A DNA stretch of 62,699 nucleotides from an uncultured Candidatus Saccharibacteria bacterium (GTDB lineage: Bacteria; Patescibacteriota; Minisyncoccia; Phycocordibacterales; DATGWK01): assembly GCA_964456405.1 (NCBI GenBank), contig CAYVZB010000004.1:1-62699 (forward strand), given 5' to 3'. This document shows, one piece after another, positions 790 to 57,289 of this stretch. A program made the position numbers and the translations under genes. The notes under the pieces are model-generated. The model did not search any database. It was not told the origin of the DNA and was given only the letters and a program-made list of their open reading frames with translations. How positions within the stretch are numbered: the stretch's first letter is position 1; every line of letters starts with the position of its first letter.

Positions 790-919
790 TGTCATTGGGG
801 AGAACTTTTTGAATTCACAGCTTCCGCCGTAGGCGGAAAGGGTTTTGAAAAATTTGACAGCGCGATTTTGGCTTCTGCAAAATCGCTCCGACTTTCTGAT
901 TCCGACAACTTCTCTTTGG

Positions 920-1224: not shown

Positions 1225-1323
1225 GTACAAAAAATTTGATATATTATAAAAGTCTAAAATGACAATGATTTAAAAAAATCTGCCTAAACTTTGCAAATGC
1301 GAAGCATGGCACAATAAGAAATT

Positions 1324-2510: not shown

Positions 2511-2512
2511 AA

Positions 2513-3133: not shown

Positions 3134-3142
3134 TTGCTATTA

Positions 3143-3447
3143 TTCCGCCAGTCCGTTAAAATTTTAGTCAGAAAATAAAAAGTGTCATTCCCCCCAACCC
3201 CCAGCCACTTTTTTATTTTCTGTCCGAATTTCTGAAGCCCCGCCACCAGCCCGAATCCTTGAGGGCAGAACACCAGAAACAAAATTTTCTTTTCCATTTA
3301 AGAGATTCTTTTTCCGCGCGCCAAATCGGAAAATGTAAAGAAAAGTTTGTTTCTGGTGTCCGCCGAGTCCGCGAGGCGGGTGGCGGGGCGTTTAGTCCTT
3401 CATTTTCTTTTGGAAATAAGTTCGAGCAAATGCTATAATAACACCAC
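3143..3447. repeat. IR-R, 305-bp arm of a perfect inverted repeat
   Basis: Exact reverse complement of 920-1224. Confidence 0.95.
3410..3439 (+). promoter_or_regulatory. Outward-facing promoter copy in IR-R (would fire antisense into the trxB-like 3' end)
   Basis: TTGGAA (3410-3415), N18, TATAAT (3434-3439), preceded by TG. Confidence 0.4.
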
Positions 3448-3485
3448 AATGATCCGCGAGAACAGTCGGGGACTGTCACGGATTT

Positions 3486-4406: not shown

Positions 4407-4512
4407 TATTCTATTTTAAACTACATATCTCATACCGCAAAACGAAACCTCTCTGGGTATCCTTTGGGGTTTTAAGTATCGCACCTCTGGGTAGGTAGAA
4501 TCTTTAGTACTG

Positions 4513-4588
4513 TATTTCTATTCCCCAAGCAACGCTCTGAGGGGACTCCCGGAGGCCGGCGTGCCCTGAAGAGCGTTGCTTAAAACCC
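4513..4588 (+). repeat. Structured intergenic repeat, family 2, copy B
   Basis: P1 AAGCAACGCTC (4527-4537) pairs with GAGCGTTGCTT (4571-4581). Shared core CTGAGGGGACTCCCGGAGGC...GTGCCCTGAAGAG matches copies at 8004-8116 (minus) and 38975-39087. Confidence 0.6.
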
Positions 4589-4647
4589 GTCCGGAGGACA
4601 ATCATTCAAAATATCGTGGACCCGCCCTCGCAGGGGCGACGCAGGTC

Positions 4648-5847: not shown

Positions 5848-6045
5848 GTTGTGATTATTAAATAAAATTAAATTACTTTTTTAGACAAAATAGAAACACA
5901 ATGCGAGTTCTCTCGCTCTCATGTCCCTAAAATGTCGAATAACGTTGCCTTATGATAGCACAGTGAAAAGTCTCTTGAAAACACTTGACCAGTTCGATCA
6001 ATCGTTTCAATATCAAGGTCCTGCGAATACAGGTGTTTTTGATAT

Positions 6046-7227: not shown

Positions 7228-7263
7228 TTATTTTAAACACTTTTTAGGATAGAAAGAGCGATT

Positions 7264-7653
7264 CTAATCTTCGTAACCTTTGATTCCAAAAACATTTCTA
7301 ATCGCCTTTTCTTCTTTGTCCATTCTACTACCGTGGTCCATTCCTTTCAAATGATGTAAACCGTGGATAAACAAAAAAGCCAGGTGATTTTCAAAAGTAT
7401 GACCAACCTCAAGAGCTTTTTCTTTTACTTTTTCTAGGCAGATAAAAATTTCTCCAGAAGATTCGGTTAGAGGAAAACTAAGAATGTCTGTAACATAATC
7501 TTTCTTTCGATATGTAGTATTGAGTTCAAGCATTTTTGGGGGTTCGACAAAGACCAGACTAAGTTCATAGTCAGGACCAAGAACTTTTTCGGCCATAACA
7601 GAAAAAGGCAGATCCGGCTGCCTCTCTGAAGTGCTTTTTATATCAACTGACAT
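7264..7653 (-). CDS. ybeY: rRNA maturation endoribonuclease YbeY
   Basis: 129 aa. HGLHHLKGMDH zinc motif. Confidence 0.85.
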   Translation of the reverse strand: MSVDIKSTSERQPDLPFSVMAEKVLGPDYELSLVFVEPPKMLELNTTYRKKDYVTDILSFPLTESSGEIFICLEKVKEKALEVGHTFENHLAFLFIHGLHHLKGMDHGSRMDKEEKAIRNVFGIKGYED

Positions 7654-7890
7654 TTATCGGAAACTTCGCTCCTGCATTTTACCCATCTTGATGAGTTCTG
7701 CTGTTTCTGTTTGTCGGTTCATTCGCTTGAGAGCGTTTTTCTTGGTTACAAAGTGAGAACGATTTCGTTCTGTGAAGCGGTTTTTTCGGACACGCATAAG
7801 GACGCCAGAGCCTTGTACTCGACGTGTAAAACGCTTGATGACGCTAATGCTATTTTCGTTATTTCCTCGCTCTACTTCTACGTTTATCAT
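7654..7890 (-). CDS. rpsU: 30S ribosomal protein S21
   Basis: Track ORF 7654..7929. The S21-like sequence starts at the internal Met: MINVEVERGNNENSISVIKRFTRRVQGSGVL..RKNRFTE. Confidence 0.8.
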   Translation of the reverse strand: MINVEVERGNNENSISVIKRFTRRVQGSGVLMRVRKNRFTERNRSHFVTKKNALKRMNRQTETAELIKMGKMQERSFR

Positions 7891-8003
7891 AGGTGGAAAG
7901 ATAGTAACATATACTATGTTTTCAATCAATAAACTTCAGCTGGGGTTTACGGTATCTAAATAATTGCTCCTCCCGGGAGGTTTCAACCAGCCCTTCAGGG
8001 GAA

Positions 8004-8116
8004 GGTTTCAAGCAATGCGCTTACGGGTACGTAGAATCTTTACTAAGATTCTACTCGGTCCTCGCGCCGTCGCGCTGCGGAGCCCCTACAGCGCATTGCT
8101 TGGGGAAAAGAAATGC
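8004..8116 (-). repeat. Structured intergenic repeat, family 2, copy A (adjoins a degenerate family-1 copy at 7984-8008)
   Basis: P1 AAGCAATGCGC (8010-8020) pairs with GCGCATTGCTT (8091-8101). The reverse complement aligns to copy B: TTCCCCAAGCAA(T/C)GC(G/T)CTG(T/A)AGGGG... Confidence 0.6.
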
Positions 8117-8162
8117 AATTCAATTCAATACGAATGCATTTGTATTGAATTCCTCTATCCCA

Positions 8163-8328
8163 ACCATTCCCCGTAGGAGTTTCGCGTAAAGGTAGTGAAA
8201 ATTGAAGAGTCTTTAGAGAGTGAGATGAGCACTGTCTGACGAGCGAAGCGAGGAGTTTGCTCATCTCACCGTAAAGACGACTACAATTTTCCTACCTTGT
8301 AGCGGGGCCCACTCCGCAGGGGAATGGT
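8163..8328. other. 166-nt domain closed by a 10-bp stem and containing a ~30-bp near-continuous hairpin (candidate ncRNA or MITE-like element)
   Basis: ACCATTCCCC (8163-8172) pairs with GGGGAATGGT (8319-8328). Inner stems: GGTAG/CTACC, GAAAATTG/CAATTTTC, GTCTTTA/TAAAGAC, TGAGATGAGC (8221-8230)/GCTCATCTCA (8259-8268). Confidence 0.5.
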
Positions 8329-8369
8329 GAAAACCCTCGGAGGGAAAGTTTATAAACGGTGAGGAAACG

Positions 8370-10253
8370 TTACATACCAAGGATAACCGGGATAACAATC
8401 GGTTTTTTGTTGGTTTTCTGGAACAAAAATCGGCTTACGGCATCTGCCACATTTGATTTCACGAACTCGAAGTTAATTGGGTTCATGCCTGTAGTAGAGG
8501 TTTCAACGGTTTTTTTGATTATCAGTCGAGCCTGCTGAAGCAGTTCCTGAGATTCACGAAGATATACGAAACCTCGGGAAATAATATCTGGAGATTTGCG
8601 GAGTTTGCCAGTTCGAACATTGATTGTGGCAATGATGACGAACATACCGTCCTCGGCGAGCATTTTTCGGTCTCGGATAACAACCTCTTGCATATCACCG
8701 ATGGTAAAGCCTTCAACCATCATGTCGTCCGACGGTGCTTTTTCCTTCAAGACAGAAATTTTGTCTGCTGTTGGTGGAATTTCAATCACCGAGCCGTTGT
8801 CTGGTACAACAATGTTTTCTTTTGGTGTGCCGAGTTGATGCGCAAGCTCAGCGTGCATTTTTACTCTGTAATGTTGGCCGTGAACCGGTATGAAGAATTT
8901 GTATGGAATCTGCTTGTGAATCCATTCGAGCTCTCCTCGTTTTCCGTGACCAGAAGCGTGAACGTCTGAGTCAAGGTAGGTAATGATCTTTGGATCGTGT
9001 CGGTAGAGATTGTCTTTAAGTTTATCAACGGCTTTTTCGTTTCCGGGAATAACAGAAGAAGAGAAAATAATAGTATCGTTTTTATTGAGCTTCACGTGTT
9101 TGTGAGTCTTGTTTGCCATTCTCATCAGAGCAGCAAATTCTTCACCCTGGGCGCCGGTTGAAATGATAAAAATCTTATTTGGCGGATATTTTTCTATGTC
9201 TTCAATCGGTACGATGTGGTCTGTTTCAACAAGGTTCAAATGTTTGATGATATCAACATTGGTTTTCATGCTTCGGCCCTCAACAATGATTTTCTTGTTG
9301 TACTTTTTTGCCATCTTGATGAATTCGATGATTCGCTCAACCTGTGATGCGAATGTTGCGATCAAGAGGCGGCCGGGCACTTCTCCAACGATTTTATCAA
9401 TCGTGTTCATCACGTGTTGTTCAGACATTGAGAATCCCGGTCGGTCGATACCAGTTGAATCCATGGCCAAAAGAAGGATGTTTCGATCCTTAAACATTTT
9501 GTATTGCTCGACTTCTTTCGGGTTCGGTATACCGTCTTCATTGTCGACTCTGACGTCACCGGTGTTTACGATATCGCCAAATGGGGTTTCGATAATGACA
9601 CCAGTTGAGTCGGGAATAGAATGGGTAAGACCAAAGAACCGAACTTTTAAGTTTGCCGTAAGGGGGATTGCACCGTCGTCTGCACCGACAATTTTGAGGT
9701 TAAGGGGTGGAAGGTGAGGAAATTCTTCGTGTCGTTTCTTGATGAGAAGTGCACCAAATTCTCGAGTGTAAATTGGCGGATTACCAAGTCGTTCGATGAG
9801 ATACGGAATACCTCCAATGTGATCTAAATGACCGTGGGTTATTACCAGAGCACGGATTTTACCTTTTCGTTCCTCGAGATATTTAATGTTTGGCAAAATA
9901 TAGTCGACACCGGGAGTTTCGTCATCGCTAAATTGAACACCAGCATCGATAACAATAATGTCGTCTTTGTATTCGACTAACATCATGTTTTTACCAATTT
10001 CCTCGACACCGCCAAGTGGAATAATCCGGATGTTTTCTCCGGCCGGTGGAATCTTTACATGCTCACCCTTTCTGTCAGGTCGTTCACTACCCATGGCAGC
10101 AGAATTTTGATGCGTAAAGGGTGTGCGGCGATCAGTACGCTGGTGATGACCTCCTGGTCTGCCTCGGCCTCCCATAGGACGACTTCTGTGTGGTCGTGGG
10201 CCTTGGTTGGAGGCTGGGTTTGCTGGTCTTACTTCTGGTTTTATTGGTTGCAT
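8370..10253 (-). CDS. rnj: Ribonuclease J (metallo-beta-lactamase/beta-CASP) with an R/G/P-rich N-terminal extension
   Basis: 627 aa. HGHLDHIGG motif and beta-CASP region. The first ~75 aa are low-complexity and basic. Confidence 0.9.
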   Translation of the reverse strand: MQPIKPEVRPANPASNQGPRPHRSRPMGGRGRPGGHHQRTDRRTPFTHQNSAAMGSERPDRKGEHVKIPPAGENIRIIPLGGVEEIGKNMMLVEYKDDIIVIDAGVQFSDDETPGVDYILPNIKYLEERKGKIRALVITHGHLDHIGGIPYLIERLGNPPIYTREFGALLIKKRHEEFPHLPPLNLKIVGADDGAIPLTANLKVRFFGLTHSIPDSTGVIIETPFGDIVNTGDVRVDNEDGIPNPKEVEQYKMFKDRNILLLAMDSTGIDRPGFSMSEQHVMNTIDKIVGEVPGRLLIATFASQVERIIEFIKMAKKYNKKIIVEGRSMKTNVDIIKHLNLVETDHIVPIEDIEKYPPNKIFIISTGAQGEEFAALMRMANKTHKHVKLNKNDTIIFSSSVIPGNEKAVDKLKDNLYRHDPKIITYLDSDVHASGHGKRGELEWIHKQIPYKFFIPVHGQHYRVKMHAELAHQLGTPKENIVVPDNGSVIEIPPTADKISVLKEKAPSDDMMVEGFTIGDMQEVVIRDRKMLAEDGMFVIIATINVRTGKLRKSPDIISRGFVYLRESQELLQQARLIIKKTVETSTTGMNPINFEFVKSNVADAVSRFLFQKTNKKPIVIPVILGM

Positions 10254-10297
10254 AATTTTTAATTAACCCTACTTCGCCCTGCGGGCTACGAAGGGCA

Positions 10298-12058
10298 CTA
10301 GTAAGCGAATATTTTCCAAACTTTATTGGTTTCGATATACCATTCTTGGATATTGTTAAAGCGTTCAGACGGTACAGTAAGTTTCCCCAATGATACGTTT
10401 GCTAACTTTTTCGGTACAACGTAGATAAATTCGGGGGAATAAATGAACGAAGCGGGCATGTCTGTTTTGAATAACGATTCAAAATCCTTTGCTCTATTCT
10501 CTCGAGCCACTGGATCTTGAATTGTTCTCAAATCCTCTAAAATCTTGTCAGCACTAATGTTTGCATAGAGTGCGATGTTGAGTCCTGGGTCATTGCGCTG
10601 TGACGAATGCCAAAAAGGATACAAATCATACTCTCTACCAACCACTTCTCCAAAAAGAAGCGCCTCAAACTTTCTTGGTCGGATCACGTTTTGGTTCAAG
10701 TCTCCGATTTCAAAGACTCGAATATCAACGGTGACACCAATTTTCTCCCAATCCTGCTTGATATACTCGGCGATTTGTTTGAGTTCAGCCGCATCACTCG
10801 TTGCAAGGGAGAAAGAAAGGGTAACTGTATTTGTACCAACTTTCTTTTCCATTGCGCCAGTTTTGGGGTTAACCGCCCAACCGGCTTTTGCCAGCATTGA
10901 GATTGCCTGGTCAGCATGGGAACGAGTAGGACTGGTTGCCTCGGATTTTTGTTCAGTTTCCTTTAGGTCCGAAGAGGGAACAGGGGAATCAATTTTTGTG
11001 GCGTAGCCACCGAGAATTTCTGAGATAATTCGGTCTTTGTCAATTGCTGTATCGAGAGCGGTTCGAACTTCTTTGTTGAGAAATACGTTTGCCTGGTTTT
11101 GGTTGAAAAACACACCGAAGACTCTTGGTAATGATGCGGTAATAATAGAGCTGTTGCGCAAGTCGAGTGTTTTTAAATCAGCGGGAGAAACGCCACCAAG
11201 TGTATCAATATCTCCGTTCTGGAATGCACTAAGAAGGTCCTCGACGTTTTGGTAGAAGCTTAAATTGATGTATTTAACAAATGGTTGACCTAACGGGTAG
11301 TCTTCAAAAGACTGAAGTGTATAGTGGTTAGAAAGTCCATAAGAATTTCTTCCAACTTTCTTTATATAGTACGGACCGTTGCCGACAGCGTTAATGTTAA
11401 GTTCACTAAAAGAAAACTGATCGGTTGGTACCTCACGCCAAATATGTTTTGGAATAATGCCGACAGTAAAGTTGTCTATAAATGGTGCATATGCTTGTTT
11501 GAGGCTGAATGTGATTTCTTTATCGTTAATTTTTTGGACAATAACTCCATCCCAAATTGGTCGTTTTGGACTTTTAACTGTTGAGTCTTGGATTTTTTGG
11601 ATAGTAAACTCTATATCTTCGGTTGTAATCGGTTCACCGTCATGAAAAAAGATATTGTCACGTAACGTAAATGTGTATGTTCGGCCATCTGGTGAGATGG
11701 TGTAGCTTGCTGCAAGATCTGGAACGAGCTTTCCATCCGGGGAGGCCTTGAGAAGGCCAGAAAAAACTAAAGACACCACGTCTTTGTCCGCATCAGAGAC
11801 TGCAAGCACTGGGTTTACGAATCGGGGGATGCCAACTACGCCCTCAGTCATTTCACCACCACGGTCTGGTACTTCAACGAGAAATTTATTATTTAAATGT
11901 GCCAAAAAAGTTAAACCAGTAACAACAGCCACGGCTATAAGAGAATAAAAAACCACTTTTTCGGTGATTGAAAATGCGTGAGTAATCCTATACAAAATTT
12001 CTAGGAACCGCCCACGTTTTAGGTTTGAAGTCGAGATTGATGAATTTTCGTTGTTCAC
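10298..12058 (-). CDS. ABC transporter substrate-binding protein, family 5 (peptide/nickel type), membrane-anchored
   Basis: 586 aa. N-terminal TM helix and SBP_bac_5-like blocks (TFTLRDNIFFHDGEPIT, GNGPYYI). GTG start. Confidence 0.8.
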   Translation of the reverse strand: MNNENSSISTSNLKRGRFLEILYRITHAFSITEKVVFYSLIAVAVVTGLTFLAHLNNKFLVEVPDRGGEMTEGVVGIPRFVNPVLAVSDADKDVVSLVFSGLLKASPDGKLVPDLAASYTISPDGRTYTFTLRDNIFFHDGEPITTEDIEFTIQKIQDSTVKSPKRPIWDGVIVQKINDKEITFSLKQAYAPFIDNFTVGIIPKHIWREVPTDQFSFSELNINAVGNGPYYIKKVGRNSYGLSNHYTLQSFEDYPLGQPFVKYINLSFYQNVEDLLSAFQNGDIDTLGGVSPADLKTLDLRNSSIITASLPRVFGVFFNQNQANVFLNKEVRTALDTAIDKDRIISEILGGYATKIDSPVPSSDLKETEQKSEATSPTRSHADQAISMLAKAGWAVNPKTGAMEKKVGTNTVTLSFSLATSDAAELKQIAEYIKQDWEKIGVTVDIRVFEIGDLNQNVIRPRKFEALLFGEVVGREYDLYPFWHSSQRNDPGLNIALYANISADKILEDLRTIQDPVARENRAKDFESLFKTDMPASFIYSPEFIYVVPKKLANVSLGKLTVPSERFNNIQEWYIETNKVWKIFAY

Positions 12059-12073
12059 AAGGATGAAAGTTGA

Positions 12074-13496: not shown

Positions 13497-13949
13497 TCAT
13501 GGCCAGGAGAAGTAGAAGTTGTCATAATCGCGAGGATCACGACTTAGCCCTGCCTGAGAGACGGCCATTAACTTCCAAGTTTTGTTCTCAGAATCGTAGG
13601 TTGCCCTGACAAATGTACCGACCGGAAACTTGTCCGCATCCCAATCGGTCATGACATGGGTCTCGCCGTTGGGTTCCTGTACCTCGGCAATGTAGCAGGT
13701 GCCACCTACTACTGCGATCTCGAGCACTTTGTAGATCAGACCGTCAGTTGGCTTGTTCCAGCTCCGGATTTTGTCCGGCGCCCTGAGTGGGAACGCAGAG
13801 ATTACATCAGCTTGGCTTGATTTGTTTTTGGCGTCGTGGACCACCTTCGACATTGTAAGTGTAATGGCACCCACTCCGCCCAAAAGGATTAAGGCGACTA
13901 GCGCCCAGAGGGCAGAATGCGAACCAAACAATTTTCTCCTGTGATGCAT
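13497..13949 (-). CDS. Hypothetical membrane-anchored protein
   Basis: 150 aa, N-terminal TM helix, AGGAG Shine-Dalgarno, own terminator at about 13441-13475. Confidence 0.5.
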   Translation of the reverse strand: MHHRRKLFGSHSALWALVALILLGGVGAITLTMSKVVHDAKNKSSQADVISAFPLRAPDKIRSWNKPTDGLIYKVLEIAVVGGTCYIAEVQEPNGETHVMTDWDADKFPVGTFVRATYDSENKTWKLMAVSQAGLSRDPRDYDNFYFSWP

Positions 13950-47280: not shown

Positions 47281-47356
47281 CGCCACCTTAGCTCAGTTGG
47301 TAGAGCAGCCGTTTTGTAAACGGCAGGTCGTCAGTTCAAGCCTGACAGGTGGCTCC
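47281..47356 (+). tRNA. tRNA-Thr (anticodon UGU), CCA encoded
   Basis: Hand-folded. Acceptor GCCACCT/AGGTGGC, D arm GCTC-AGTTGGTA-GAGC, anticodon arm GCCGT-TTTGTAA-ACGGC, T arm GTCAG-TTCAAGC-CTGAC. Confidence 0.9.
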
Positions 47357-47439
47357 AAAAGTATGGTTTTATGCGCACGTGTGGATTCAGCTATTGTTTA
47401 GCTATTTTAAATGAACGATAATCAAATGGAGCGTGTAGC

Positions 47440-48087
47440 TTGCAGATGATTAGTAATAAATATTCTTTTAAATTTGTCAGGGGGAGTACCTTGGGTAGTT
47501 CAGCTACTTATGTTGTTGGTGAAAAACCATTAGCACTGAATGAAAGTTCTTCTGGAGATATTGGTGAAAAGCAGACTCTCATAACCGATGAAAATAAACG
47601 GGTTTTTCTTAAGGCATTAGGGGTAGCGGGTATCGGACTTGCCGCGTCCCAATTTTTACCCAAAAAGGCAGAAGCTTTGGTAATGGGAAGTACACCATCT
47701 TCAAGTGTGGTTGGAGTAAAAGACGCGAGTAACGACAGAATAAATCCTGCAACAGAAGAAACTGTTGCCTCGCTTCTTGCAGGTCAGGGCGTTTCAAAAA
47801 TTACCACCACACTTGCAGCAACGGGAAATGTCCACACTCCTGGTTCTGGTAAAAAAATCAGGGTTTATGCTTCGCGCTTTTCTTTAACGGCGGACGCGAC
47901 ATCAGTCTCGTTCCGTTTTACGTCCGGTGGCACGGATCACGAAAAATATGTGTCTCCGAAAGCCGGTGGTTTGTATGGTTCGAACAATCATCCAAATTAT
48001 ATCGAAGGTGGTGTGGATGAGGTGTTATACTGTGTAATATCTGGCACTACCACCGTGCAAATTAATATCGATTATTTAGAAGTTTAA
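47440..48087 (+). CDS. Hypothetical exported protein with a twin-arginine-like (KR) signal
   Basis: 215 aa. ENKRVFLKALGVAGIGLAASQFLPKKAEA fits S/T-R-R-x-F-L-K plus h-region plus AxA, except K-R replaces R-R. Beta-rich C-terminal domain. TTG start (ATG at 47446). Confidence 0.6.
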   Translation: MQMISNKYSFKFVRGSTLGSSATYVVGEKPLALNESSSGDIGEKQTLITDENKRVFLKALGVAGIGLAASQFLPKKAEALVMGSTPSSSVVGVKDASNDRINPATEETVASLLAGQGVSKITTTLAATGNVHTPGSGKKIRVYASRFSLTADATSVSFRFTSGGTDHEKYVSPKAGGLYGSNNHPNYIEGGVDEVLYCVISGTTTVQINIDYLEV

Positions 48088-48098
48088 TTTTAGAAGCA

Positions 48099-50759
48099 AT
48101 GGCATTACGAGCAGTTGAACATGTATTTACAGGAGTCACTACACCATACTCAAACTATGATTCGACTAAGACCAGTTTAGGGGATCTAATCGAACAGTAT
48201 ACAGGTGATGATAACACTGATAAGTTTGCTGGACCTTCAAAAATCGGTATTGCGCGACCGTTTGAAACCTCAACTTCAATTCCAGGTATTTTCCCGCACG
48301 TAGTACAGTGGGCGAATAAAGAGGGGCACTATTCAACGGGTACAGTTGCTGTTTCTGGTACTGCTGTGACAGGTAGTGGAACAGGGTGGTTAGCGGCAGG
48401 GGTGCCTATTGGCGCAAGAATTGGTTTTGGTTCAACTGACCCTGCAGAAATTACAACCTGGTACACCATTACTGCTATTGGTTCTGCTACAACACTAACA
48501 CTTGCAACTTCGGCGGGTACGATTTCAGGTGGCACGGCCTTTGTAATAGATAAAGAAGTTAAAAAAGACTGGGTATTTTTGGCCGATAACGCTGCTACTG
48601 CAGCAACTCGTAGAATTTCCTGCTTTGCTTACGATCGTTTAACCTCACTTTTTACATGGAGAGGATTCATTACAATTACCTACCCAGCCGGTGGAGGTAA
48701 TCAAATAATCAGAGGAATGCGAGTTATTTATGATACCTATACTGCTGGGACTATTGAGGTTTCGGGAGCTACGGTAACTGGCACGTCAACACTCTGGTCG
48801 GACTCACGTATTGCAGTTGGTTCCAGAATTGGTTTTGGTAGTACCGATCCGACACAAATTACTACCTGGTATTATATTAACGCTGTCAGTTCAAACACCT
48901 CAATCACACTCCAAACAAACGTTACTGCAAGCGGTACTGGAGGCACCGCCGCTAGTCTTACTATTTCTTCAGGTACAGCGTATGTCATTGAAGATTTGAA
49001 GGTTCTTACTTCTACTACCGCAGTTGTGATTGCGGCGGCGGGTTTGACCTTGGTTAACGGTCTTTCTTATGATGATTTTGCGGTCGGTGGTACAACTATT
49101 GCTGCGGCTACGACAGTTGATAAAACAAAGGCGGCGTACAGTCTTGTCGATCTTGATTCGATCTATTCGACTGGAACCGTAACAGTTCCAACATCAACAA
49201 CTGTTACCGGGTCAGGAACGGCATGGGCCGCTGCTACTCATCTCGGATGTAAAATTGGCTTTGGTTCAACCAACCCTGCTTCTATAACTACATGGTATAC
49301 GATCACTGCTGTTGGTTCGGGTACATCCCTTACCATTTCATCCGCGGCAACGGTGTCAGGGGGTACAAGTTATGTGATTGTCGGCGGAAACGGCATTTCG
49401 TGCGGTTTGGCAGTTGACGATCGTGTCAGTTGGACTGAGCAATATGCATATATAATCGAACTTCAGGGTGGAACCACGCCACAAGTATATAAATATAATT
49501 TCAGAGCTGATCTTACAACGCTTGGTGGTATTGGTGCAGGTAAGGCTGCGGCTGCGTGGGTACTCACAACAGGAACCCAGACCGTTACTGGTACGGTGAC
49601 ACAGACTAATAACGGTCGTGTTGGAATTTTATCCCACGGACCAGGTTCTGGTGTTAAGTGTTTATATTTTGTTTCCGGTAGCCGTGTTCACCGTGCACCG
49701 CTTACTGATATCGTTCAAGGAAGTACAACATGGGTTTCGGACTCCATGAGCGAAATTCCTCCCGGTGGTACTTCTACCTACGGTCTCACGAGTCTTTTGA
49801 CCGGTGTAGAAATTGCCGATCAAATCGACAGGCTTATTCTTACCACTACTGGCGCTGGTACTACCACAGCTCACCATCGTGCTTATTTAACAAAGTACGA
49901 TGCGTCTGGATCCTATGCGTTTGACCATATCTTCCTTGTGGATACTGGTCAACAAGATCAGTCTTCCGCTGATTCTGCCTCGGTGCCGCATCCAAGCGCA
50001 CAGGGCGCCGCTTTGTCTGTGTGGTCACAGGCCGGCCTTGTGTATATTGCACGTACGGGTACGGCCGCGACAACAAACGTAATGTACACAGTACCATTGG
50101 GTGCCGACTGGGAGTATGCTGATGGTTCAGTTAATCAAAGACTCATTACACCAGTACTCTCAACAGAGAATGCCCAAAAACTAATACGTGTGTACGCTAA
50201 TAATGCAGACTATTTAGGTGACGATAGTCTAACTATGCCAACAGAACCATTTAGGATTTATTATCGAACCTCAGGGATTGATGATGATTCGGGTAACTGG
50301 GTGTTGGTTGACCAAACTGGTGATTTAACCGGAGCGACTCCCGCGGAAGAAATTCAATTCGCAATCGAATTCAGAACTATTGGTGCAATTTGTCTCCCTA
50401 ATCGCGTATACAACCTGTCTTGTTTGTATGAGGACAATACTACTGATAGTCATTATCAGCCATCTGTTGCGCAGTCTTCAACAACAGAAAAAAGATTTGC
50501 ATGGAGATTTTCAACTGCATTTGGCGGCACAGTTCCAACACTCAGAATTAGACTGTATAATGCAACAACTGGCGGACTTTTGCTTGATGATACGACCACT
50601 GCATTGGCATCTGGCACGTTTGAGAAATCAACCAACGACGGCGGCTCGTGGGGATCATACAATACATCTGATAAGAGCAATGACACGACATACATTCGTT
50701 ATACGCCAACTTCGCTTGCAGACAACATAAAGGTTCGCGCCCTCCTAACACAAAACTAA
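48099..50759 (+). CDS. 886-aa signal-less protein with three ~70-aa G/T/S-rich repeats
   Basis: Long uninterrupted ORF. Repeats at aa 78-150, 214-296 and 356-427 share GT(V/I)xV..G..VTG(S/T)GT.W....G..IGFGST.P..ITTWY.I.A..S.TS(L/I)T......SGGT.YVI. Confidence 0.75.
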   Translation: MALRAVEHVFTGVTTPYSNYDSTKTSLGDLIEQYTGDDNTDKFAGPSKIGIARPFETSTSIPGIFPHVVQWANKEGHYSTGTVAVSGTAVTGSGTGWLAAGVPIGARIGFGSTDPAEITTWYTITAIGSATTLTLATSAGTISGGTAFVIDKEVKKDWVFLADNAATAATRRISCFAYDRLTSLFTWRGFITITYPAGGGNQIIRGMRVIYDTYTAGTIEVSGATVTGTSTLWSDSRIAVGSRIGFGSTDPTQITTWYYINAVSSNTSITLQTNVTASGTGGTAASLTISSGTAYVIEDLKVLTSTTAVVIAAAGLTLVNGLSYDDFAVGGTTIAAATTVDKTKAAYSLVDLDSIYSTGTVTVPTSTTVTGSGTAWAAATHLGCKIGFGSTNPASITTWYTITAVGSGTSLTISSAATVSGGTSYVIVGGNGISCGLAVDDRVSWTEQYAYIIELQGGTTPQVYKYNFRADLTTLGGIGAGKAAAAWVLTTGTQTVTGTVTQTNNGRVGILSHGPGSGVKCLYFVSGSRVHRAPLTDIVQGSTTWVSDSMSEIPPGGTSTYGLTSLLTGVEIADQIDRLILTTTGAGTTTAHHRAYLTKYDASGSYAFDHIFLVDTGQQDQSSADSASVPHPSAQGAALSVWSQAGLVYIARTGTAATTNVMYTVPLGADWEYADGSVNQRLITPVLSTENAQKLIRVYANNADYLGDDSLTMPTEPFRIYYRTSGIDDDSGNWVLVDQTGDLTGATPAEEIQFAIEFRTIGAICLPNRVYNLSCLYEDNTTDSHYQPSVAQSSTTEKRFAWRFSTAFGGTVPTLRIRLYNATTGGLLLDDTTTALASGTFEKSTNDGGSWGSYNTSDKSNDTTYIRYTPTSLADNIKVRALLTQN

Positions 50760-50760
50760 T

Positions 50761-51495
50761 ATGATTCACATTGAAAAAGGAGAATTTGTAGTAGGGAATC
50801 CGTCGCTCAAAGTGGTGACCAAGACTGGTGACTATGAAGATACAGCCCTAATTGAATTTAAAGATGTGAGCTCTGAGGAGGAACTCGTAGCCGGTGCTTA
50901 TCAAGCACAGTTTATTAAATACGGCAATTTGGTGTACCAATTCAATGATCCTAAGGATTTGGGTGTTGAAATTTTGAAAATCGACCCAGAATCTACTCAC
51001 GCTGCGGCATCTTTTGTTCGGCTCAATGCTGAGCTTTTGAGGCAACTCAATAATGGCTCACTCGAACCGTCGTCTCTAGACCAAGCGGTGGCAGAAGAAA
51101 AGATCAACACAGAGGAACCAGTAGAAGGTCCTGTTGATGTTGTCGAACCGGAGGAAACAGATGAACCGGATGATACTTTTCCACCGATCGATACACCAAC
51201 ACCGACTACACCACATATCGATATTTCAACCACAACCACTCCCTTCATCCCAAATAATTCGAAAAAGAATAGAAAAATTATTGATGTTCAGAAAACTAAT
51301 GTGGTCGATGATTTTGCTACAGATCAGATTTTGCCCGTAGATAAAAAAATTGATAATTCTTCGATTTTAGAGGAAGTGCTTGAAGTCGTGAGTCCGGAAG
51401 TCGGAGATGTTGTTTCTTCTGTCAAAAGGAAAATCGCTAAACTTAAAGGAATTACTCCAAAAAAGTTAGCCAAGAAAAAGCGTCGCAACACTTAG
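50761..51495 (+). CDS. Hypothetical acidic protein with P/T linker and K/R-rich C-terminus
   Basis: 244 aa. ATG is 1 nt after the 886-aa stop (TAATATG). Confidence 0.6.
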   Translation: MIHIEKGEFVVGNPSLKVVTKTGDYEDTALIEFKDVSSEEELVAGAYQAQFIKYGNLVYQFNDPKDLGVEILKIDPESTHAAASFVRLNAELLRQLNNGSLEPSSLDQAVAEEKINTEEPVEGPVDVVEPEETDEPDDTFPPIDTPTPTTPHIDISTTTTPFIPNNSKKNRKIIDVQKTNVVDDFATDQILPVDKKIDNSSILEEVLEVVSPEVGDVVSSVKRKIAKLKGITPKKLAKKKRRNT

Positions 51496-51511
51496 TTGGT
51501 CATACTTCCAT

Positions 51512-51691
51512 ATGGCATTATCCGATGTAAATTTTCAAGAGGGTGAAGGACAAGATTTTCTTTTGGAATTACCAACGGCTATATATGTTGGCTCTGTGAA
51601 TGATATTTTGAATGAACCGAGTAGCGCTCAGCTTCCAGTCATGGAACTGCCAGAATCCGAGGGTGGAGATATTTTTATTATGTCCGAATAG
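51512..51691 (+). CDS. Possible 59-aa acidic protein (below the ORF-track cutoff)
   Basis: Own translation: MALSDVNFQEGEGQDFLLELPTAIYVGSVNDILNEPSSAQLPVMELPESEGGDIFIMSE*. Fills the gap before tatC. Confidence 0.35.
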   Translation: MALSDVNFQEGEGQDFLLELPTAIYVGSVNDILNEPSSAQLPVMELPESEGGDIFIMSE

Positions 51692-51705
51692 ACTGAATTG
51701 TTTAC

Positions 51706-52425
51706 GTGGAGACTTTCAAGAATTTCATACAAAAATTTACGCCGTATCTCGAGGATATCAGGCGTCGGCTTTATTTTCTGGCAATTTTCTTCATTGCTAT
51801 GTTTATTGCTGGGTTTTTGGGAACCGGGATCATTATAAAGTTCATTCTTTCCTTGTTTGATATTAAAGATGTGGTTATTGCCACGACTTCACCTTTTCAG
51901 TTTGCTGATCTTTCTGTGAATATTGGTTTGGCTGCGGCCTGTCTCGTCTGTTGTCCACTTTTTGTGTACCATATTTTTTCTTTTTTGAGTCCGGCCCTTA
52001 GCAAAAGGGAAAAGAAATCATTCTTTGTCGTTTTACCTCTCTCGATCATTTTATTTTCAGCTGGATTCGTATATGGTTTTTTCATTTTGTATTACGCACT
52101 TATCACATTGGCGCGTATCAACAACAGTATTGGTGTTCAAAACATATGGGATGTAGGAACCTTTTTGTCCCAAATCATCATTACAGCCACACTTTTGGGT
52201 GTTTTGTTTCAGTTTCCGATTGTTGTGAGCTACCTTATTCGAATGGGACTTTTGGATGTCGCTGTTCTTCGTTCAAAAAGAAAGATCGCGGTGTTTATAA
52301 TATTCATTTTTGCAACTTTACTTCCACCAACCGACGGGCTATCATTAATTGCGATGGTATTGCCGCTTACGTTACTCTACGAGCTTACAATTTTGGCAAA
52401 TTCGAGAGTGCGAAGTTCTGCATAG
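51706..52425 (+). CDS. tatC: Twin-arginine translocase subunit TatC
   Basis: 239 aa, 6 TM helices. FLSPALSKREKK and LLPPTDGLS blocks. GTG start. Confidence 0.85.
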   Translation: METFKNFIQKFTPYLEDIRRRLYFLAIFFIAMFIAGFLGTGIIIKFILSLFDIKDVVIATTSPFQFADLSVNIGLAAACLVCCPLFVYHIFSFLSPALSKREKKSFFVVLPLSIILFSAGFVYGFFILYYALITLARINNSIGVQNIWDVGTFLSQIIITATLLGVLFQFPIVVSYLIRMGLLDVAVLRSKRKIAVFIIFIFATLLPPTDGLSLIAMVLPLTLLYELTILANSRVRSSA

Positions 52426-52464
52426 GCAATCGAAGGGAGTATATTATTAGTATTTATATAAAAT

Positions 52465-52647
52465 ATGTTTGGAAATATTGGGACAAAAGAAATTATCATC
52501 ATAGCTGTTGTTTTCATCATTCTTTTTGGCGCAAAGAAGATCCCAGAACTTTCAAAGAGTTTGGTTGAATCCATCCGACATCTCCGAGGTGCCTTTAAGG
52601 ATCTTCCTCCTGAAACAACTGGTAAGGAAGAAAAGAAACGATCTTAG
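52465..52647 (+). CDS. tatA: Twin-arginine translocase subunit TatA/E
   Basis: 60 aa. IIIIAVVFIILFGAKKIPELSKSL, amphipathic helix. Confidence 0.8.
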   Translation: MFGNIGTKEIIIIAVVFIILFGAKKIPELSKSLVESIRHLRGAFKDLPPETTGKEEKKRS

Positions 52648-52689: not shown

Positions 52690-54669
52690 ATGTTAGATCG
52701 TAGAAATTCTATTCTCAATAGGTTTTTAAAATCATTCTTTTTTATCTGGATATTTGTTTTGATTTTGGGCGTTTTTTCAGTTGCTCGAGCAGCATATGAG
52801 CGTTTTGAAGCCGGTGGCACCGCAACCATCGGTGAATTTGTGTACGACGATGATTTTGTTGCAACTACAACCGCTGGTTGTGTTGTGACAATTTATAATC
52901 CTGCTGGATCCGCCGTTGTTACTAACGCTTCTATGTCTGTGAATGTGACAAACGGTTGGTATTATTATAATTATTCTATTCCTACGTCTGGTGCAACCGG
53001 TGTTTGGCCAACCACAATGCGGTGCGGTAGTGCGGCGGTTGGTGATTTGGTTCAGTTGGACAAGAGTTTCGCCGTCGGAGATATTGTTGTTTCTTCCTCA
53101 ACCATTGCAACCTCTGTCTGGCAGAATGCAACGCGTTCACTTACCTCATTCGGTACACTTGTCTCTGATGTCTGGGCAAACGGTACCAGAACGCTCACTG
53201 GAGCTGGGTTAACCTCAGGCTCTTTGGCAACGCAGGCAGACATTTTGACCGCCTCATCATCTCTTGCAGCAACCATTCCAACAGCTGTCTGGAGCTCTGG
53301 AACTCGATCACTTACAACATTTGGCACACTGGTTTCAGACGTTTGGGCTAACGGTACACGAACACTTACCTCTGGTGGCAGTATCACTGCTGCCGATGTT
53401 TGGTCATATGCAACCCGAAGGCTCTCTGACTCAACACTCGATACTGGTTCACTTGCAACAGCAGCAAATCTAACAACCGCATCTTCTTCAATTGCAGCGG
53501 TGGTCAATGCTAATACCGATTCACAAGTTTCCTCAATTAACGCAAATACAAACTCTGTTGTTGGAACAGCGTCCTCATCACTTGCTTCTGTAATCAATGC
53601 CAACACAAACTCTCAGATTTCTTCAGCAATTTCAACGATAAACAGCAACGTTGCTTCAACGGTGCTTACAGCTTCGACATCGCTCGTCGCTACAATTCCA
53701 ACCGCGGTCTGGGCTAACACAACACGTTCACTCACCACATTTGGTAGCCTTGTTGCGGATATCTGGTCAGCCGCTACTCAAACACCATGGGATATGACCA
53801 CATCAGACTTCGGTACGGTAGCTGCGGGTAGTAATTATCTCGCAACAGTTCGAACGACATACAACGGCACACTTACTGACTCAAACAACACTCCGACAGT
53901 CACATTGTATGACCCAAGTAGAAACGTAATTGTGAGTGGTGTAGCAATGACTCGAATTTCAACAGGAACATATTCCTACTCATACACAACAACGAGCGGT
54001 TCACCTGCAGGTACATGGGAAGCGGTTTTCTCGGCAGGAGTTGATACTGGAAAGACACTTTCAGGCAGTGACTACTGGACCGTGGTTTCATCTCCTGCCC
54101 AGGTCATTATCAACAGTATTTCTGATACAGTAGCTCCAGAAATTTCTGCCAATGTCACAATCACGAACGAAGGTTTGACTGGATACGAGTATCAGTATGA
54201 ATGGTGTGTCGTTTCAAGCATCGACAATGCTTGTGGAGGGGGTAACGACACGTTCCATGGTATTGCGGCGAAATTTATCAATGCCGGTGAAGATTTCAAT
54301 ACAACACTGACCGCAACTGTGCCTAATGACGGCAATTATTTCTTCAAGTTGGTCGTGTACTTCGGTGACGACAGTTCTGGTGCTTCACGATCATTCGCTG
54401 TGACTGGCGGTACTGGTGGCGGCAGTCCACCTTCGGGTGGTGGTGGCGGAGGAGGGGGTGGTGGGGGAAGTTCAGGTGGTTCTCAGACGACAAATTCAGC
54501 GGTTGCAGATTTGAACGGGGATAACATCGTAAATTCTGTTGATTTCTCCATTCTTCTTTACTTCTGGAAAGCACAACCACCATTTTCTAACCCACAGGTT
54601 GATATGAATAAGGATGGTAAAATAGATTCTGTTGATTTCTCCATTCTTCTGTATCGATGGGGCCAATAG
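52690..54669 (+). CDS. Secreted repeat protein with poly-Gly linker and C-terminal dockerin module
   Basis: 659 aa. Signal peptide. Seven W-x5-R-x-LT repeats. G-run. Duplicated calcium-loop segments DLNGDNIVNSVDFSILL and DMNKDGKIDSVDFSILL. Confidence 0.75.
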   Translation: MLDRRNSILNRFLKSFFFIWIFVLILGVFSVARAAYERFEAGGTATIGEFVYDDDFVATTTAGCVVTIYNPAGSAVVTNASMSVNVTNGWYYYNYSIPTSGATGVWPTTMRCGSAAVGDLVQLDKSFAVGDIVVSSSTIATSVWQNATRSLTSFGTLVSDVWANGTRTLTGAGLTSGSLATQADILTASSSLAATIPTAVWSSGTRSLTTFGTLVSDVWANGTRTLTSGGSITAADVWSYATRRLSDSTLDTGSLATAANLTTASSSIAAVVNANTDSQVSSINANTNSVVGTASSSLASVINANTNSQISSAISTINSNVASTVLTASTSLVATIPTAVWANTTRSLTTFGSLVADIWSAATQTPWDMTTSDFGTVAAGSNYLATVRTTYNGTLTDSNNTPTVTLYDPSRNVIVSGVAMTRISTGTYSYSYTTTSGSPAGTWEAVFSAGVDTGKTLSGSDYWTVVSSPAQVIINSISDTVAPEISANVTITNEGLTGYEYQYEWCVVSSIDNACGGGNDTFHGIAAKFINAGEDFNTTLTATVPNDGNYFFKLVVYFGDDSSGASRSFAVTGGTGGGSPPSGGGGGGGGGGGSSGGSQTTNSAVADLNGDNIVNSVDFSILLYFWKAQPPFSNPQVDMNKDGKIDSVDFSILLYRWGQ

Positions 54670-54687: not shown

Positions 54688-55596
54688 ATGCACAAGATAT
54701 TCAAATTTTTAGTAATAGCGATGATCGCTTTTGTTCTTCCACAGATGGTCTCGGCAGCGTCCGTATATGTTGAAGCGTCTCGAAGTACTATTTCAGTCGG
54801 CGACACTGCTGTGGTCGCGGTTAAGATCAATGCTGATGGCGGGGTAATCAACACGATTGAAGGAGATATAGCAATAAATTCAGTGGCGAATAACGCTGTT
54901 GTTCAGGAATTTAGTCTTGCTAATTCTGCTTTTGGATTGTGGCCACGAACTCCATCACTTTCTACCGATGGGAAAACGGTTTCTTTTGTCGGGGGAGTGC
55001 CAGGCGGTTTCAGTATTGAGGGTGCCACTGTTTTTAAAATAATTCTTGAAGCAAAAAAACCTGGTCGCGTAACTATTTCTCCTAAAAATATTTCTGTATA
55101 CCAAAACGATGGTCAGGGTACAAAATTACCAATACAATTTAAGGATGTGGCAATTGATGTCGTTGCCGCGCAATCTGGTGTAGAGGCCGTAAATGACTGG
55201 GCGGCAATTGTTTCTCAGGATGTAACAAAACCAGAAGACTTTATTATCGTTCCTGGACAGACAAATAATCTTTTTGAAGGCAAAAAATTTGTATTCTTTA
55301 GCGCAGTGGACAACCAGTCCGGCATTGACTATTACGAAGTTTCTGAAAATGGTGGCACTGCGGTACGAAGCGGTAGCACCTATGTCTTACAAAACCAGAA
55401 TGGCAATGTCGATCTCACAGTTACTGCGTATGACAAGGCAGGTAACCGACGTGTGGTAAAAAGCGCGGTTGAGCCAAAAGAAGGAATTTCATGGACGTTT
55501 GTTATTACGGTAATTCTGGCTGGAGTGGTGCTTAAGATTGTGTATAAAATTTGGAAGCGTAGAAAAAGTAATGCATCATTTTCTGGTCAAAATTAA
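54688..55596 (+). CDS. Cohesin-like domain protein, C-terminally membrane-anchored
   Basis: 302 aa. Signal peptide. SVYVEAS..ISVGDTAVVAVKINADGGVINTIEGDIAI...FKIILEAKKPGRVTIS. C-terminal TM helix plus KRRK. Confidence 0.65.
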   Translation: MHKIFKFLVIAMIAFVLPQMVSAASVYVEASRSTISVGDTAVVAVKINADGGVINTIEGDIAINSVANNAVVQEFSLANSAFGLWPRTPSLSTDGKTVSFVGGVPGGFSIEGATVFKIILEAKKPGRVTISPKNISVYQNDGQGTKLPIQFKDVAIDVVAAQSGVEAVNDWAAIVSQDVTKPEDFIIVPGQTNNLFEGKKFVFFSAVDNQSGIDYYEVSENGGTAVRSGSTYVLQNQNGNVDLTVTAYDKAGNRRVVKSAVEPKEGISWTFVITVILAGVVLKIVYKIWKRRKSNASFSGQN

Positions 55597-57289
55597 ATCT
55601 ACTTTCACCGTTGTTCTTGTTCTTCTGACTCTTTGCCTAGGTTTTGGATTTGCTTCGACTGCAGAAGCAGCCAGTCTTTATCTTTCGCCGTCGTCTCCAA
55701 GCTCTTCAGTGGGAAATATCACAACTCTTAAGGTTCTTGTTGATACCCAAGGAAAAGCAATTAACAACTCAGATGGAATCATCCAATTTCCAACAGATTC
55801 ATTAGAGGTTTTATCTATTAGCAAGAATCAATCGATTTTTACGATTTGGGTAGAGGAACCAAGGTTTTCCAATACTGATGGAACAATTACTTACAACGGA
55901 GGCGTTCCAAACCCCGGCTATACTGGAGCTGCTGGTGAAATCCTCACAGTAACCTTTAAGGCAAAGAAGCAGGGCCCAGCGTCAGTCATTTTTTCTGATT
56001 CAACTGTGCGCGAAAATGACGGCTACGGAACCGATATCCTTGTAGGAAAGCTTCCTGCTGTTATTAATGTTGGACAGGCGGTAGTGGATGCGCCTGCCCC
56101 CGCTACGGTTTCTAGTTTGCCACCAAAGCCAGTGGTAAAGTCACTTACCCATCCAGAACAGGATGGATGGTACTCGGAAACAACGGGTACTTTTAGTTGG
56201 GTTGTACCGGCAGGAGTGACATCTCTCCAGACGCTCTTAAGCAAGAATCCAACAGCGGTGCCTGCTATCACGTACGACCGATCAGTTTCTCAGCGAACCG
56301 TTAACAACTTGTCAGATGGAATTTTATACTTCCATGTTCGTTATTTGAACAATGTTGGCTGGGGACCGACAGCGCATTACAAAATTCAGATTGATACAAC
56401 CCCACCCGAGCTTTCTTCACTTCGCGTAGAGGGTGTTGATGGACGTGATGTGGTTACACTTACTGCAAAAGATTCTTTGTCTGGCGTCGAACGCTATGAA
56501 CTCACTGTCGATGACCAAGCTTCAATCGAATTTAAGTCATCAGAAGAAAACCCTCAGTTTGTACTACCTGTTCAAAATCCAAGCACTCATCGTTTAGGTG
56601 TTGTGGCTTTTGATAAGGCTGGTAATAAGGCCGAGATAACGACTTCATTTGATAGTCCACCAATTAAAGAACCAACGATTGATGTTGCTGAGAAGGAAAT
56701 TAGTAATGGAAGGAAGATCACTGTAACTGGTCAGACAGACTATCCAAATTCTGGTGTTGAGGTTTTGGTTCAGATTGGCGATCAACAACTTGGTTTGTTC
56801 CAGGGTGTGACGGCAGAGGACGGCACGTTTACTGTAATTTCTGATGAAATCAGAGAAAGTGGAACCGTCAAGGTTACTGCACAGCTCGTGTTCTCAGAAT
56901 TTGTTAAGAGCCCGTATTCTCAGCCGGTCTTTGTGCAGGTTTCTGATTTCTACGTCATAAAGGTCAGCAAAGAGGTGGTTCGGGTGCTGACATATGTCAT
57001 TCCGGCTGTCTTTATGCTGTTTGCTCTCCTTATACTCGTTTATCTTGGATGGCATAGGTTCTTTAGCCTTAAAAAGCGTTTAAGAAGAGATCTCGATGAA
57101 ACAGCGGCTGGAGTTCATAAGGCTGTTGCAATGTACAAGAGTGAATTGGCGCGACAGCTTGAGAAACTCGAACGAGCACGTGTTGACGATGGCCTCAATA
57201 AAGAAGAAGAAAAGATCTTCAAAGAACTCAAGAACAGTATCGATGACATCGATTTGTTTATCGAGAAAAAACTAAAGAAATTTAAATAG
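55571..57289 (+). CDS. Cohesin-like domain protein with Ig-like modules, TM helix and cytoplasmic coiled-coil tail
   Basis: Start MHHFLVKIKSTFTVVLVLL inside track ORF 55538..57289. SLYLSPSS..VGNITTLKVLVDTQGKAINNSDGIIQFP..LTVTFKAKKQGPASVIF. Confidence 0.65.
   Translation: MHHFLVKIKSTFTVVLVLLTLCLGFGFASTAEAASLYLSPSSPSSSVGNITTLKVLVDTQGKAINNSDGIIQFPTDSLEVLSISKNQSIFTIWVEEPRFSNTDGTITYNGGVPNPGYTGAAGEILTVTFKAKKQGPASVIFSDSTVRENDGYGTDILVGKLPAVINVGQAVVDAPAPATVSSLPPKPVVKSLTHPEQDGWYSETTGTFSWVVPAGVTSLQTLLSKNPTAVPAITYDRSVSQRTVNNLSDGILYFHVRYLNNVGWGPTAHYKIQIDTTPPELSSLRVEGVDGRDVVTLTAKDSLSGVERYELTVDDQASIEFKSSEENPQFVLPVQNPSTHRLGVVAFDKAGNKAEITTSFDSPPIKEPTIDVAEKEISNGRKITVTGQTDYPNSGVEVLVQIGDQQLGLFQGVTAEDGTFTVISDEIRESGTVKVTAQLVFSEFVKSPYSQPVFVQVSDFYVIKVSKEVVRVLTYVIPAVFMLFALLILVYLGWHRFFSLKKRLRRDLDETAAGVHKAVAMYKSELARQLEKLERARVDDGLNKEEEKIFKELKNSIDDIDLFIEKKLKKFK

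Follow-up and report, generated by a model that had tools for sequence, protein, structure and literature searches.

The 62.7-kb window analysed here, a contig from an uncultured Candidatus Saccharibacteria bacterium (CAYVZB010000004.1), contains a gene cluster in which the components of a twin-arginine translocation (Tat) system, tatC and tatA, are preceded by four open reading frames (ORFs) that are named below by their lengths in amino acids (aa) as p215, p886, p244 and p59; all coordinates are positions in the window. The six ORFs lie on the + strand in the order p215, p886, p244, p59, tatC, tatA and are separated by gaps of only 11, 1, 16, 14 and 39 nucleotides (nt), so that the order, common direction and tight packing reported in a preliminary description of this DNA are borne out by the ORF positions. 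The observation is confirmed and lies far beyond chance: the order and content of the cluster recur at all 61 informative loci of a survey of species-level genomes. The question addressed below is what this Tat system exports, and the evidence points to proteins of phage ancestry.

The p215 ORF (47440-48087) has 215 aa when counted from the TTG at 47440, but the true start is probably the ATG at 47446, giving 213 aa, because the homologues begin MI.NK.SF. Its predicted Tat signal peptide (47446-47676, +), which was delimited using alignment, motif counts, the TIGR01409 model and phage homologues that start right after the leader, combines a long n-region carrying a conserved MIxNKxSFK with the motif K53-R54-V-F-L-K58 (nt 47596-47613; in its window context N-K-R-V-F-L-K), an uncharged and mildly hydrophobic h-region (ALGVAGIGLAASQFLP), and then KK-A-E-A, in which A77-E-A79 forms an A-x-A site. 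The Kyte-Doolittle window maximum of the h-region is 1.66, as against 2.3-2.75 in the Sec-type signals and anchors encoded downstream. The remainder (47677-48087, +) is the predicted mature domain, a putative beta-rich “knob” of 136 aa and about 14 kDa, assigned by homology to signal-less phage proteins; it is extremely conserved across the family. A search of PDB sequences with the p215 profile gave nothing significant.

More than 643 homologues of p215, the best 120 at 65-92% identity, are found in Paceibacteria-type genomes of the Candidate Phyla Radiation (CPR). When one representative genome per species was scanned, yielding 80 p215 loci, the pattern [K/R]-R-x-F-[L/I]-K was present at 77 (lysine-arginine, KR, at 67 and arginine-arginine, RR, at 10), with R-K-R-S-L-L-K at one further locus, and the second arginine was invariant throughout the 80 genomes. 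An uncharged, weakly hydrophobic stretch follows the motif in the homologues, most of which also have A-x-A. With the TIGR01409 model, whose curated cut-off is 16.7 bits, 23 of the 26 family members in the alignment give a match at E <= 1, and the cut-off is exceeded by an RR orthologue (P0103, 22.8 bits) as well as by a KR relative (P0362, 17.5 bits). Tat recognition is known to be asymmetric, in that it accepts KR but depends critically on the second arginine, and TtrB, of tetrathionate reductase, is the only known native KR Tat cargo (PMC6708511). TtrB resembles p215 in having lysine for the first arginine while keeping the second, but KR is here the majority state of a family, occurring in 67/80 genomes and in 92/101 leader-bearing cluster representatives. 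The K-R variant fit to the twin-arginine consensus, which had been pointed out on inspection of p215 alone, therefore holds up, with KR and RR interchanging at the motif and the RR orthologue exceeding the model cut-off. On this sequence evidence the leader is an evolutionarily maintained Tat signal, and p215 is very probably a Tat substrate.

The cluster representatives come from an exhaustive search with the p215 profile over 1.84 billion of them, which returned 310 relatives at E <= 0.001. Among the best 150 of these relatives, a Tat-like motif together with an h-region is present in 101 (92 KR and 9 RR), and about 49 are signal-less proteins, mostly of 115-621 aa, which end in the “knob” domain. 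Most of the leader-bearing representatives share both the leader and the segment following the cleavage site (GSTP...VGxK...INPAT) and differ in their C-terminal domains, and a second class of proteins with the same leader exists in divergent clusters. In one divergent cluster (L143), tatA is followed by two leader proteins, the first of 206 aa and the second of 514 aa with fibre-type repeats, and then by a signal-less repeat protein of 888 aa, a lysozyme-like protein, tatC and a trio of genes, described below, that includes a dockerin gene. The leader family and this cluster together suggest that Tat-linked export of phage-fibre-like proteins is a general theme in the lineage, of which the window appears to hold the most conserved form.

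The extreme N-terminus of the leader (47446-47595; P0267, P0273, P0279) has a conserved M-I/L-x-N/S-K-x-S-F-R/K, which is set 30-40 variable residues apart from the KR motif and is common to both classes of leader-bearing protein. This N-terminal motif could be a chaperone or proofreading site.

The two tat genes are readily recognized. The tatC gene (51706-52425, +; 239 aa, GTG start) matches PF00902 at 127.5 bits (E 7.8e-37, cut-off 25.1) and TIGR00945 at 114.9 bits, and tatA (52465-52647, +; 60 aa) matches PF02416 at 50.9 bits (E 9e-14, cut-off 21) as well as the NCBIfam TatA models. Because the window shows no tatB-type gene, the system is taken to be a minimal TatAC system. Residues E16 and E102 are invariant in the alignment of TatC proteins from these clusters, and they would correspond to the signal-binding glutamates of E. 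coli TatC.

Among the 80 genome loci, tatC is present at 61, and at each of the remaining 19 the sequence stops less than 9 kb past the p215 gene, so that there is no informative counter-example to the linkage; the 61 loci with enough downstream DNA are the informative loci referred to throughout. At these loci tatA is also present in 60 cases, tatC starts within 150 nt of the p59 gene in 52, and at least one gene of the p886 family directly follows p215 in 58; the number of p886-family genes between p215 and tatC is one at 49 loci, three at 9 and none at 3. The genes flanking the cluster vary between genomes. In a reverse survey seeded with TatC and covering metagenome contigs with at least 8 kb of upstream DNA (17 loci), a p215 homologue was found at 14. 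Counted beside these is a locus (L092) in which the cargo genes are followed by an 8.6-kb insertion; at another (L120) a truncated ORF of more than 2,824 aa occupies the upstream space, which is therefore uninformative, and a third (L141) belongs to a high-GC genome without the cluster. A strict scan for a Tat motif plus h-region, applied to 2,485 ORFs in 1.25 Mb of cluster-flanking DNA, gave 54 matches, all of them p215 homologues, and none among the other ORFs; the window likewise has no second strict motif.

Both the co-conservation with tatCA and the dedicated Tat linkage that had been proposed for these genes are supported by the surveys, since tatC and tatA accompany the cluster at 61/61 and 60/61 informative loci in co-directional adjacency, and since most informative loci reached from TatC return the same cluster. 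The Tat system is likely to be dedicated mainly to this class of proteins, and vertical inheritance in Paceibacteria as a chromosomal operon is the best explanation for the cluster. A looser scan of the window added one 150-aa protein (13497-13949, - strand) in which MHHRRKLFG precedes a hydrophobic stretch of about 22 residues; TIGR01409 gave no match to it, and it is more likely to be a signal anchor than another Tat substrate.

The protein encoded next to p215 is of a different kind. p886 (48099-50759, +; 93 kDa), which starts 11 nt past the p215 stop, is a signal-less protein whose N-terminus is not hydrophobic, and neither a Tat motif nor a hydrophobic N-terminus occurs in any of 120 homologues. 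The AlphaFold2 model is confident and all-beta (predicted local distance difference test, pLDDT, 85.4; predicted template modelling score 0.80), in agreement with the beta-rich and signal-less character first ascribed to the protein. It contains a propeller-like core and three small beta-barrel repeats of about 77-90 aa that are 53-66% identical (nt 48324-48554, 48732-48998 and 49161-49391). The repeats match phrog_1591 (tail fiber) at E 3.6e-15, and a Foldseek search with the model retrieves the K1F and phi92 endosialidase tailspikes with probability 1.0 and E of about 5e-6, generic propellers that score as well as these tailspikes, and, with E as low as 1.7e-13, many Caudovirales proteins that are uncultured or uncharacterised. 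The template modelling scores (TM-scores) to the tailspikes are only about 0.2, and the overall architecture is therefore unlike that of any solved tailspike. The likeness to phage fibres and tailspikes consists of a Foldseek match in the propeller core (K1F, phi92), a sequence match in the small barrels (phrog_1591, an N-terminal domain) and true homologues in virion modules, sometimes in tandem, whereas the copies found in cells lie on the chromosome, are strongly conserved and are linked to an export system. Profile comparison with PDB sequences gave no significant match to p886, the best being a weak lead between residues 358-459 and a phage “decoration protein” (8eci, E 0.009), and profile-profile comparison detected no homology between p215 and p886.

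The 886-type protein is 73-88% identical between genomes in which TatC is only 44-66% identical, which indicates strong purifying rather than diversifying selection. Across L001-L085, both this protein (74-80% identity) and mature p215 exceed TatC (44-66%) in conservation, and at L082 they surpass RF-1, L25 and L31 (48-57%) as well, a degree of constraint that is unusually strong for a presumed surface protein.

Homologues of p886 also occur in viral DNA. In IMG/VR, 133 stretches were found that encode homologues of about 700-800 aa, which match most or all of the protein at 35-51% identity and are present on some contigs in two or three tandem copies; the counts of viral loci given below rest on the 80 of these that were retained (L166-L245), which lie on contigs of about 4 to 519 kb from uncultivated tailed phages. 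The contexts are those of virion and lysis genes. In L204, the homologue at 9908-12070 (46-49% identity, E 5e-128) follows genes for a protease, a major head protein (phrog_138, E 1e-65) and an adaptor and precedes a p59-like gene; L218 has three tail-fibre genes directly 5' of the homologue and also a primase/helicase; a major head protein is also encoded in L167; in L180 the gene directly 5' of the homologue is that of a virion structural protein; and in L191 the homologue lies between a holin and an endolysin. No tatC, tatA or dockerin trio was found in any of the 80 viral loci. Phage counterparts of the other cargo-side genes were detected with hidden Markov models (HMMs). With the model built from cellular genes, a p59-like ORF directly follows the p886-like gene, often overlapping it, at 21/80 loci; an ORF resembling the N-terminal domain of p244 adjoins it at 24/80; and a gene resembling mature p215 lies directly 5' of it in L190, L191 and L194, with a weaker match in L199.

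The phage copies of p215 have no Tat motif. Met1 of the 126-aa protein of L191 (5485-5865) aligns to residue 80 of the 213-aa form (49% identity, E 9e-36), so that its alignment begins immediately past the predicted A-E-A cleavage site, and the C-terminal part of the L190 protein is 40% identical to mature p215. This starting point indicates that p215 is a phage protein to which a Tat leader has been added, and it supports the signal-peptide boundary independently. As judged from homology, all four cargo-side genes (the mature part of p215, p886, p244 and p59) are phage-derived, an origin that is new beyond the preliminary description. Metagenomes are the only source from which the donor or recipient phages are known: neither p886 nor mature p215 has a homologue in the 50,697 GenBank phage records, and a pattern scan of IMG/VR with p215 gave nothing, its phage homologues surfacing only beside p886 homologues in the HMM search. 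The uncultivated phages that carry p886 plausibly infect CPR hosts.

Homologues in phages for all four cargo genes are also what would be expected if the cluster were a decaying prophage or tailocin-like remnant lying by accident beside a housekeeping tatCA pair, with a fortuitous Tat-like motif, and a tRNA gene just 5' of the cluster in the window would suit such an origin. This alternative is effectively refuted, and can be assigned only a marginal probability. No capsid, terminase, integrase, sheath or tube gene is present in the window neighbourhood, and the nine cluster proteins gave no match to such families; the flanks instead carry ribosomal and translation genes (L25, RF-1, S2, EF-Ts and PheRS), which places the cluster in the chromosome and outside any prophage. 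Against decay, the arrangement is kept in 61/61 species-level genomes under strong purifying selection, and against a fortuitous motif, the leader is found on the cellular copies and not on the phage copies, with KR and RR covarying exactly at the Tat position. The tRNA gene in question, tRNA-Thr(tgt) at 47282-47357, is situated about 83-89 nt 5' of the cluster; because tRNA adjacency is not recurrent at 42 other loci, it is not an integration-site signature, and the idea of a tRNA-linked island was rejected. Recruitment of virion genes for a cellular function is a feature that the cluster shares with tailocins, type VI secretion systems and extracellular contractile injection systems, but sheath, tube, baseplate and capsid genes are absent here, only a fibre- or spike-type module having been retained, and release would take place by Tat export rather than by lysis or an injection apparatus.

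The two acidic proteins that complete the cargo side have no match in Pfam, NCBIfam or PHROGs. p244 (50761-51495, +), which starts 1 nt after the p886 stop and whose description rests on computed isoelectric points (pI), an HMM of its N-terminal domain and its conservation in the genome loci, has a conserved acidic N-terminal domain of about 120 aa (pI 4.4 for residues 1-120), an acidic linker rich in proline and threonine, and a basic C-terminal tail (pI 10.3 for residues 201-244). p59 (51512-51691, +; MALSDVNF...GGDIFIMSE), recognized by HMM and by its conserved closeness to tatC, has a pI of 4.05, with 12 aspartate or glutamate residues and no lysine or arginine. The acidic/basic division of p244 and the acidity of p59 that had been noted earlier are therefore reproduced by the computed values, but the chaperone role suggested for the two proteins is not supported: their phage homologues accompany p886-like genes in genomes that have no Tat genes, so that a Tat-specific chaperone role is unlikely and both proteins are better regarded as phage-inherited partners of the large protein.

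The explanation which best accounts for these results as a whole, and which is assigned a probability of about 0.55, is that a minimal TatAC system has the export of a domesticated phage tail module as its dedicated task, with the large protein hitchhiking on p215. In the mechanism envisaged, a phage “knob” protein would have gained a Tat signal of about 78 residues and of the K-R-x-F-L-K type and thereby become p215; TatC would recognize p215, TatA would carry the folded protein over the membrane, and cleavage would follow A-E-A. The signal-less large propeller protein or proteins would fold in the cytoplasm in the manner of phage virion proteins, with p244 and p59 probably helping or accompanying them, and the large protein would then bind mature p215 and most likely ride out with it. 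At a 1:1 ratio p886 and mature p215 would together amount to about 107 kDa, which is inside the Tat cargo range of about 150 kDa (PMC6708511).

Two known arrangements come nearest to this mechanism. In B. subtilis, TatAdCd has a single known cargo, expressed together with it (PMC6708511); the phoD-tatAd-tatCd arrangement resembles the present one in placing a TatB-less TatAC pair in one operon with its cargo, but here tatC precedes tatA, at least four genes of the cargo side are found upstream, the signal carries KR instead of RR, and the cargo consists of phage-derived structural proteins and not of a cofactor enzyme. Tat hitchhiking is known from E. coli PaoABC (PMC4273604) and from the FAD-glucose dehydrogenase of Burkholderia, which has a small Tat-signal “hitchhiker protein” (PMC6719666). 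These systems and the hydrogenases share with the cluster a small subunit, the sole bearer of the Tat signal, encoded beside a larger signal-less partner, and the hydrogenase small subunit, like p215, has a long n-region. The present case differs in that the partners are not redox enzymes, complex formation and co-export are predicted, and the large partner is exchangeable between genomes and shows no co-evolution with its escort.

This last difference is among several points which weigh against the preferred reading and which are gathered here. In a co-evolution test based on pairwise distance matrices across loci and Mantel tests with 999 permutations, distances of mature p215 track those of TatC (r = 0.48), but the distances of the large protein follow neither p215 (r = 0.01, partial r = -0.03) nor TatC (r = 0.08), the observed partial correlation being reached in 603 of the 999 permutations. 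The decoupling is visible in individual genomes: L006 is 92% identical to the window in p215 and 91% in TatC, yet its large protein is only 41% identical and is of another type, and the 886-type protein is found at 74-80% identity in genomes in which TatC reaches only 44-56%. Three loci with p215 and tatCA, such as L056, have no p886-family gene, and only 4/80 viral loci pair a p215-like with a p886-like gene, so that the pair is not obligate in phages. As regards the signal, the KR p215 of the window scores 15.0 bits with TIGR01409 and falls just under the cut-off; as regards structure, the AlphaFold2 model of p215 with 26 close homologues has a pLDDT of 47 and is too poor for use. Finally, if p886 forms trimers like those of phages, the assembly (at least about 280 kDa) would exceed known Tat cargo sizes.

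The decoupled phylogeny indicates that the large protein behaves as an exchangeable cassette, and the picture that emerges from the sequences is of a vertically inherited export platform (the leader protein, p59, TatC and TatA) combined with exchangeable cargo cassettes. This pattern fits an escort which recognizes a feature shared by different cargoes, and it also fits the export of leader-bearing proteins only. Under the latter alternative, p215 (together with the other leader-bearing proteins of divergent clusters) would be the only Tat-exported component, and the large proteins would remain cytoplasmic or leave by another route, being linked for co-regulation only or inserted as cassettes in a permissive site. 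Besides the independence of the large-protein phylogeny from p215 and TatC, this alternative draws on the swapping of cargo types among close relatives, on the loci without p886, and on the 514-aa repeat protein of L143, whose own Tat leader shows that such large proteins can gain a signal when export is needed. The same cluster, however, still has an 888-aa signal-less protein beside its leader-bearing ones. The restriction of export to p215 also does not readily account for cargo genes that are wedged between p215 and tatC at 61/61 loci, with gaps of 1-40 nt, for a p886-family gene directly after p215 at 58/61, or for phage virion proteins that have no obvious cytoplasmic role. It is accordingly considered unlikely, though it is the alternative to be taken most seriously, and the predicted co-export of the large protein with p215 is itself given even odds.

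Directly downstream of tatA lie three genes that may complete the hitchhiking module on the outside of the cell. The first (52690-54669, +) encodes a 659-aa protein with a Sec signal and, in its C-terminal part, a Dockerin_1 match (32.6 bits, cut-off 22.9), and its assignment to the cluster draws also on co-conservation. The next two (together 54688-57289, +), identified by hydrophobic terminal segments and synteny, encode proteins of 302 aa (p302; 54688-55596) and 583 aa (55538-57289), each with an N-terminal signal and a C-terminal membrane anchor; the start of the 583-aa ORF overlaps the end of the 302-aa gene and its position is uncertain. The dockerin gene plus p302 is found at 46/61 loci, downstream of the cluster in 30 and upstream in divergent orientation in 16. 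The 302-aa and 583-aa proteins are possible surface scaffolds, and after export the complex would probably be held outside by the dockerin protein and these two membrane-anchored partners. A dockerin-bearing secreted protein that is encoded with membrane-anchored partners and co-conserved with the cluster recalls cellulosome-like cohesin-dockerin assemblies, but cohesin was not detected here, neither protein matching it in Pfam or in PDB sequences. Of the cohesin and dockerin genes that the preliminary description had attached to the cluster, the dockerin gene and its two co-conserved, membrane-anchored neighbours are borne out, but the cohesin is unconfirmed; of its overall interpretation, the Tat signal, the dedicated linkage and the dockerin association are supported, escort of the large protein is a reasonable prediction, and the chaperone role is unlikely.

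The function of the exported module may be that of an adhesion or polysaccharide-degrading spike. A more specific proposal, which is put forward tentatively, is that a domesticated fibre or tailspike module, with its KR-leader subunit and with a TatAC system kept essentially for export of folded proteins, would present exchangeable “heads”, tethered through the dockerin protein, for attaching to host cells or feeding on them. A rival to this view of the role, though not of the export route, is that the Tat-exported phage-like proteins serve phage defence by masking receptors or acting as decoys, as in superinfection exclusion. Their homologues are virion proteins of uncultivated phages that plausibly infect CPR and that have no relatives among the GenBank phages, and the cassette-like swapping of the large protein resembles that of arms-race loci; on the other hand, the 73-88% identity of the 886-type protein, set against 44-66% for TatC, bespeaks purifying selection, and defence-system genes were not seen in the cluster. 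A defensive role is therefore regarded as improbable, and a domesticated surface module remains the preferred reading.

Searches of the literature outside subscription-only sources turned up no account of this cluster. If the proposal is correct, the cluster would be the first Tat-exported machinery derived from phage virions and would contain, by a wide margin, the largest family of KR Tat signals in nature, hundreds of them in place of the single textbook case of TtrB. What is new is the cargo class and the large natural KR set; the substrate-dedicated Tat operon with possible hitchhiking is of a known kind. The retention of Tat in many CPR/Patescibacteria has been puzzling, since these bacteria, with their tiny genomes, are known to export almost no enzymes that contain cofactors, and the cluster offers a concrete candidate answer for Paceibacteria, namely that Tat is kept in order to export pre-folded, phage-derived surface proteins. 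It would add to the known uses of Tat a new class of cargo and a layout in which a conserved export platform serves exchangeable cargo, and it is a candidate for the surface structures through which episymbionts contact other cells. The genes shared with uncultivated phages could help to assign those phages to CPR hosts.

A scan of the cluster for promoters and terminators gave a result no better than that for shuffled sequence. Several loci depart from the usual arrangement between p215 and tatC. In L143 the gene for the lysozyme-like protein (9042-9938), which has a tail rich in proline and threonine, lies directly 5' of tatC, in the position of p244, and in L120 it is the truncated ORF (7-9995), rich in Asp-box/BNR-like repeats, that directly precedes tatC. 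The 8.6 kb or so of additional DNA in L092 (1348-10001) lies between the p59-like gene and tatC. In L056 (10001-14810), p215 is followed by genes of 144, 255, 267 and 269 aa in place of the p886-family gene, and then by a p59-like ORF that shares the C-terminal IFIMSE, by tatC and by two copies of tatA.

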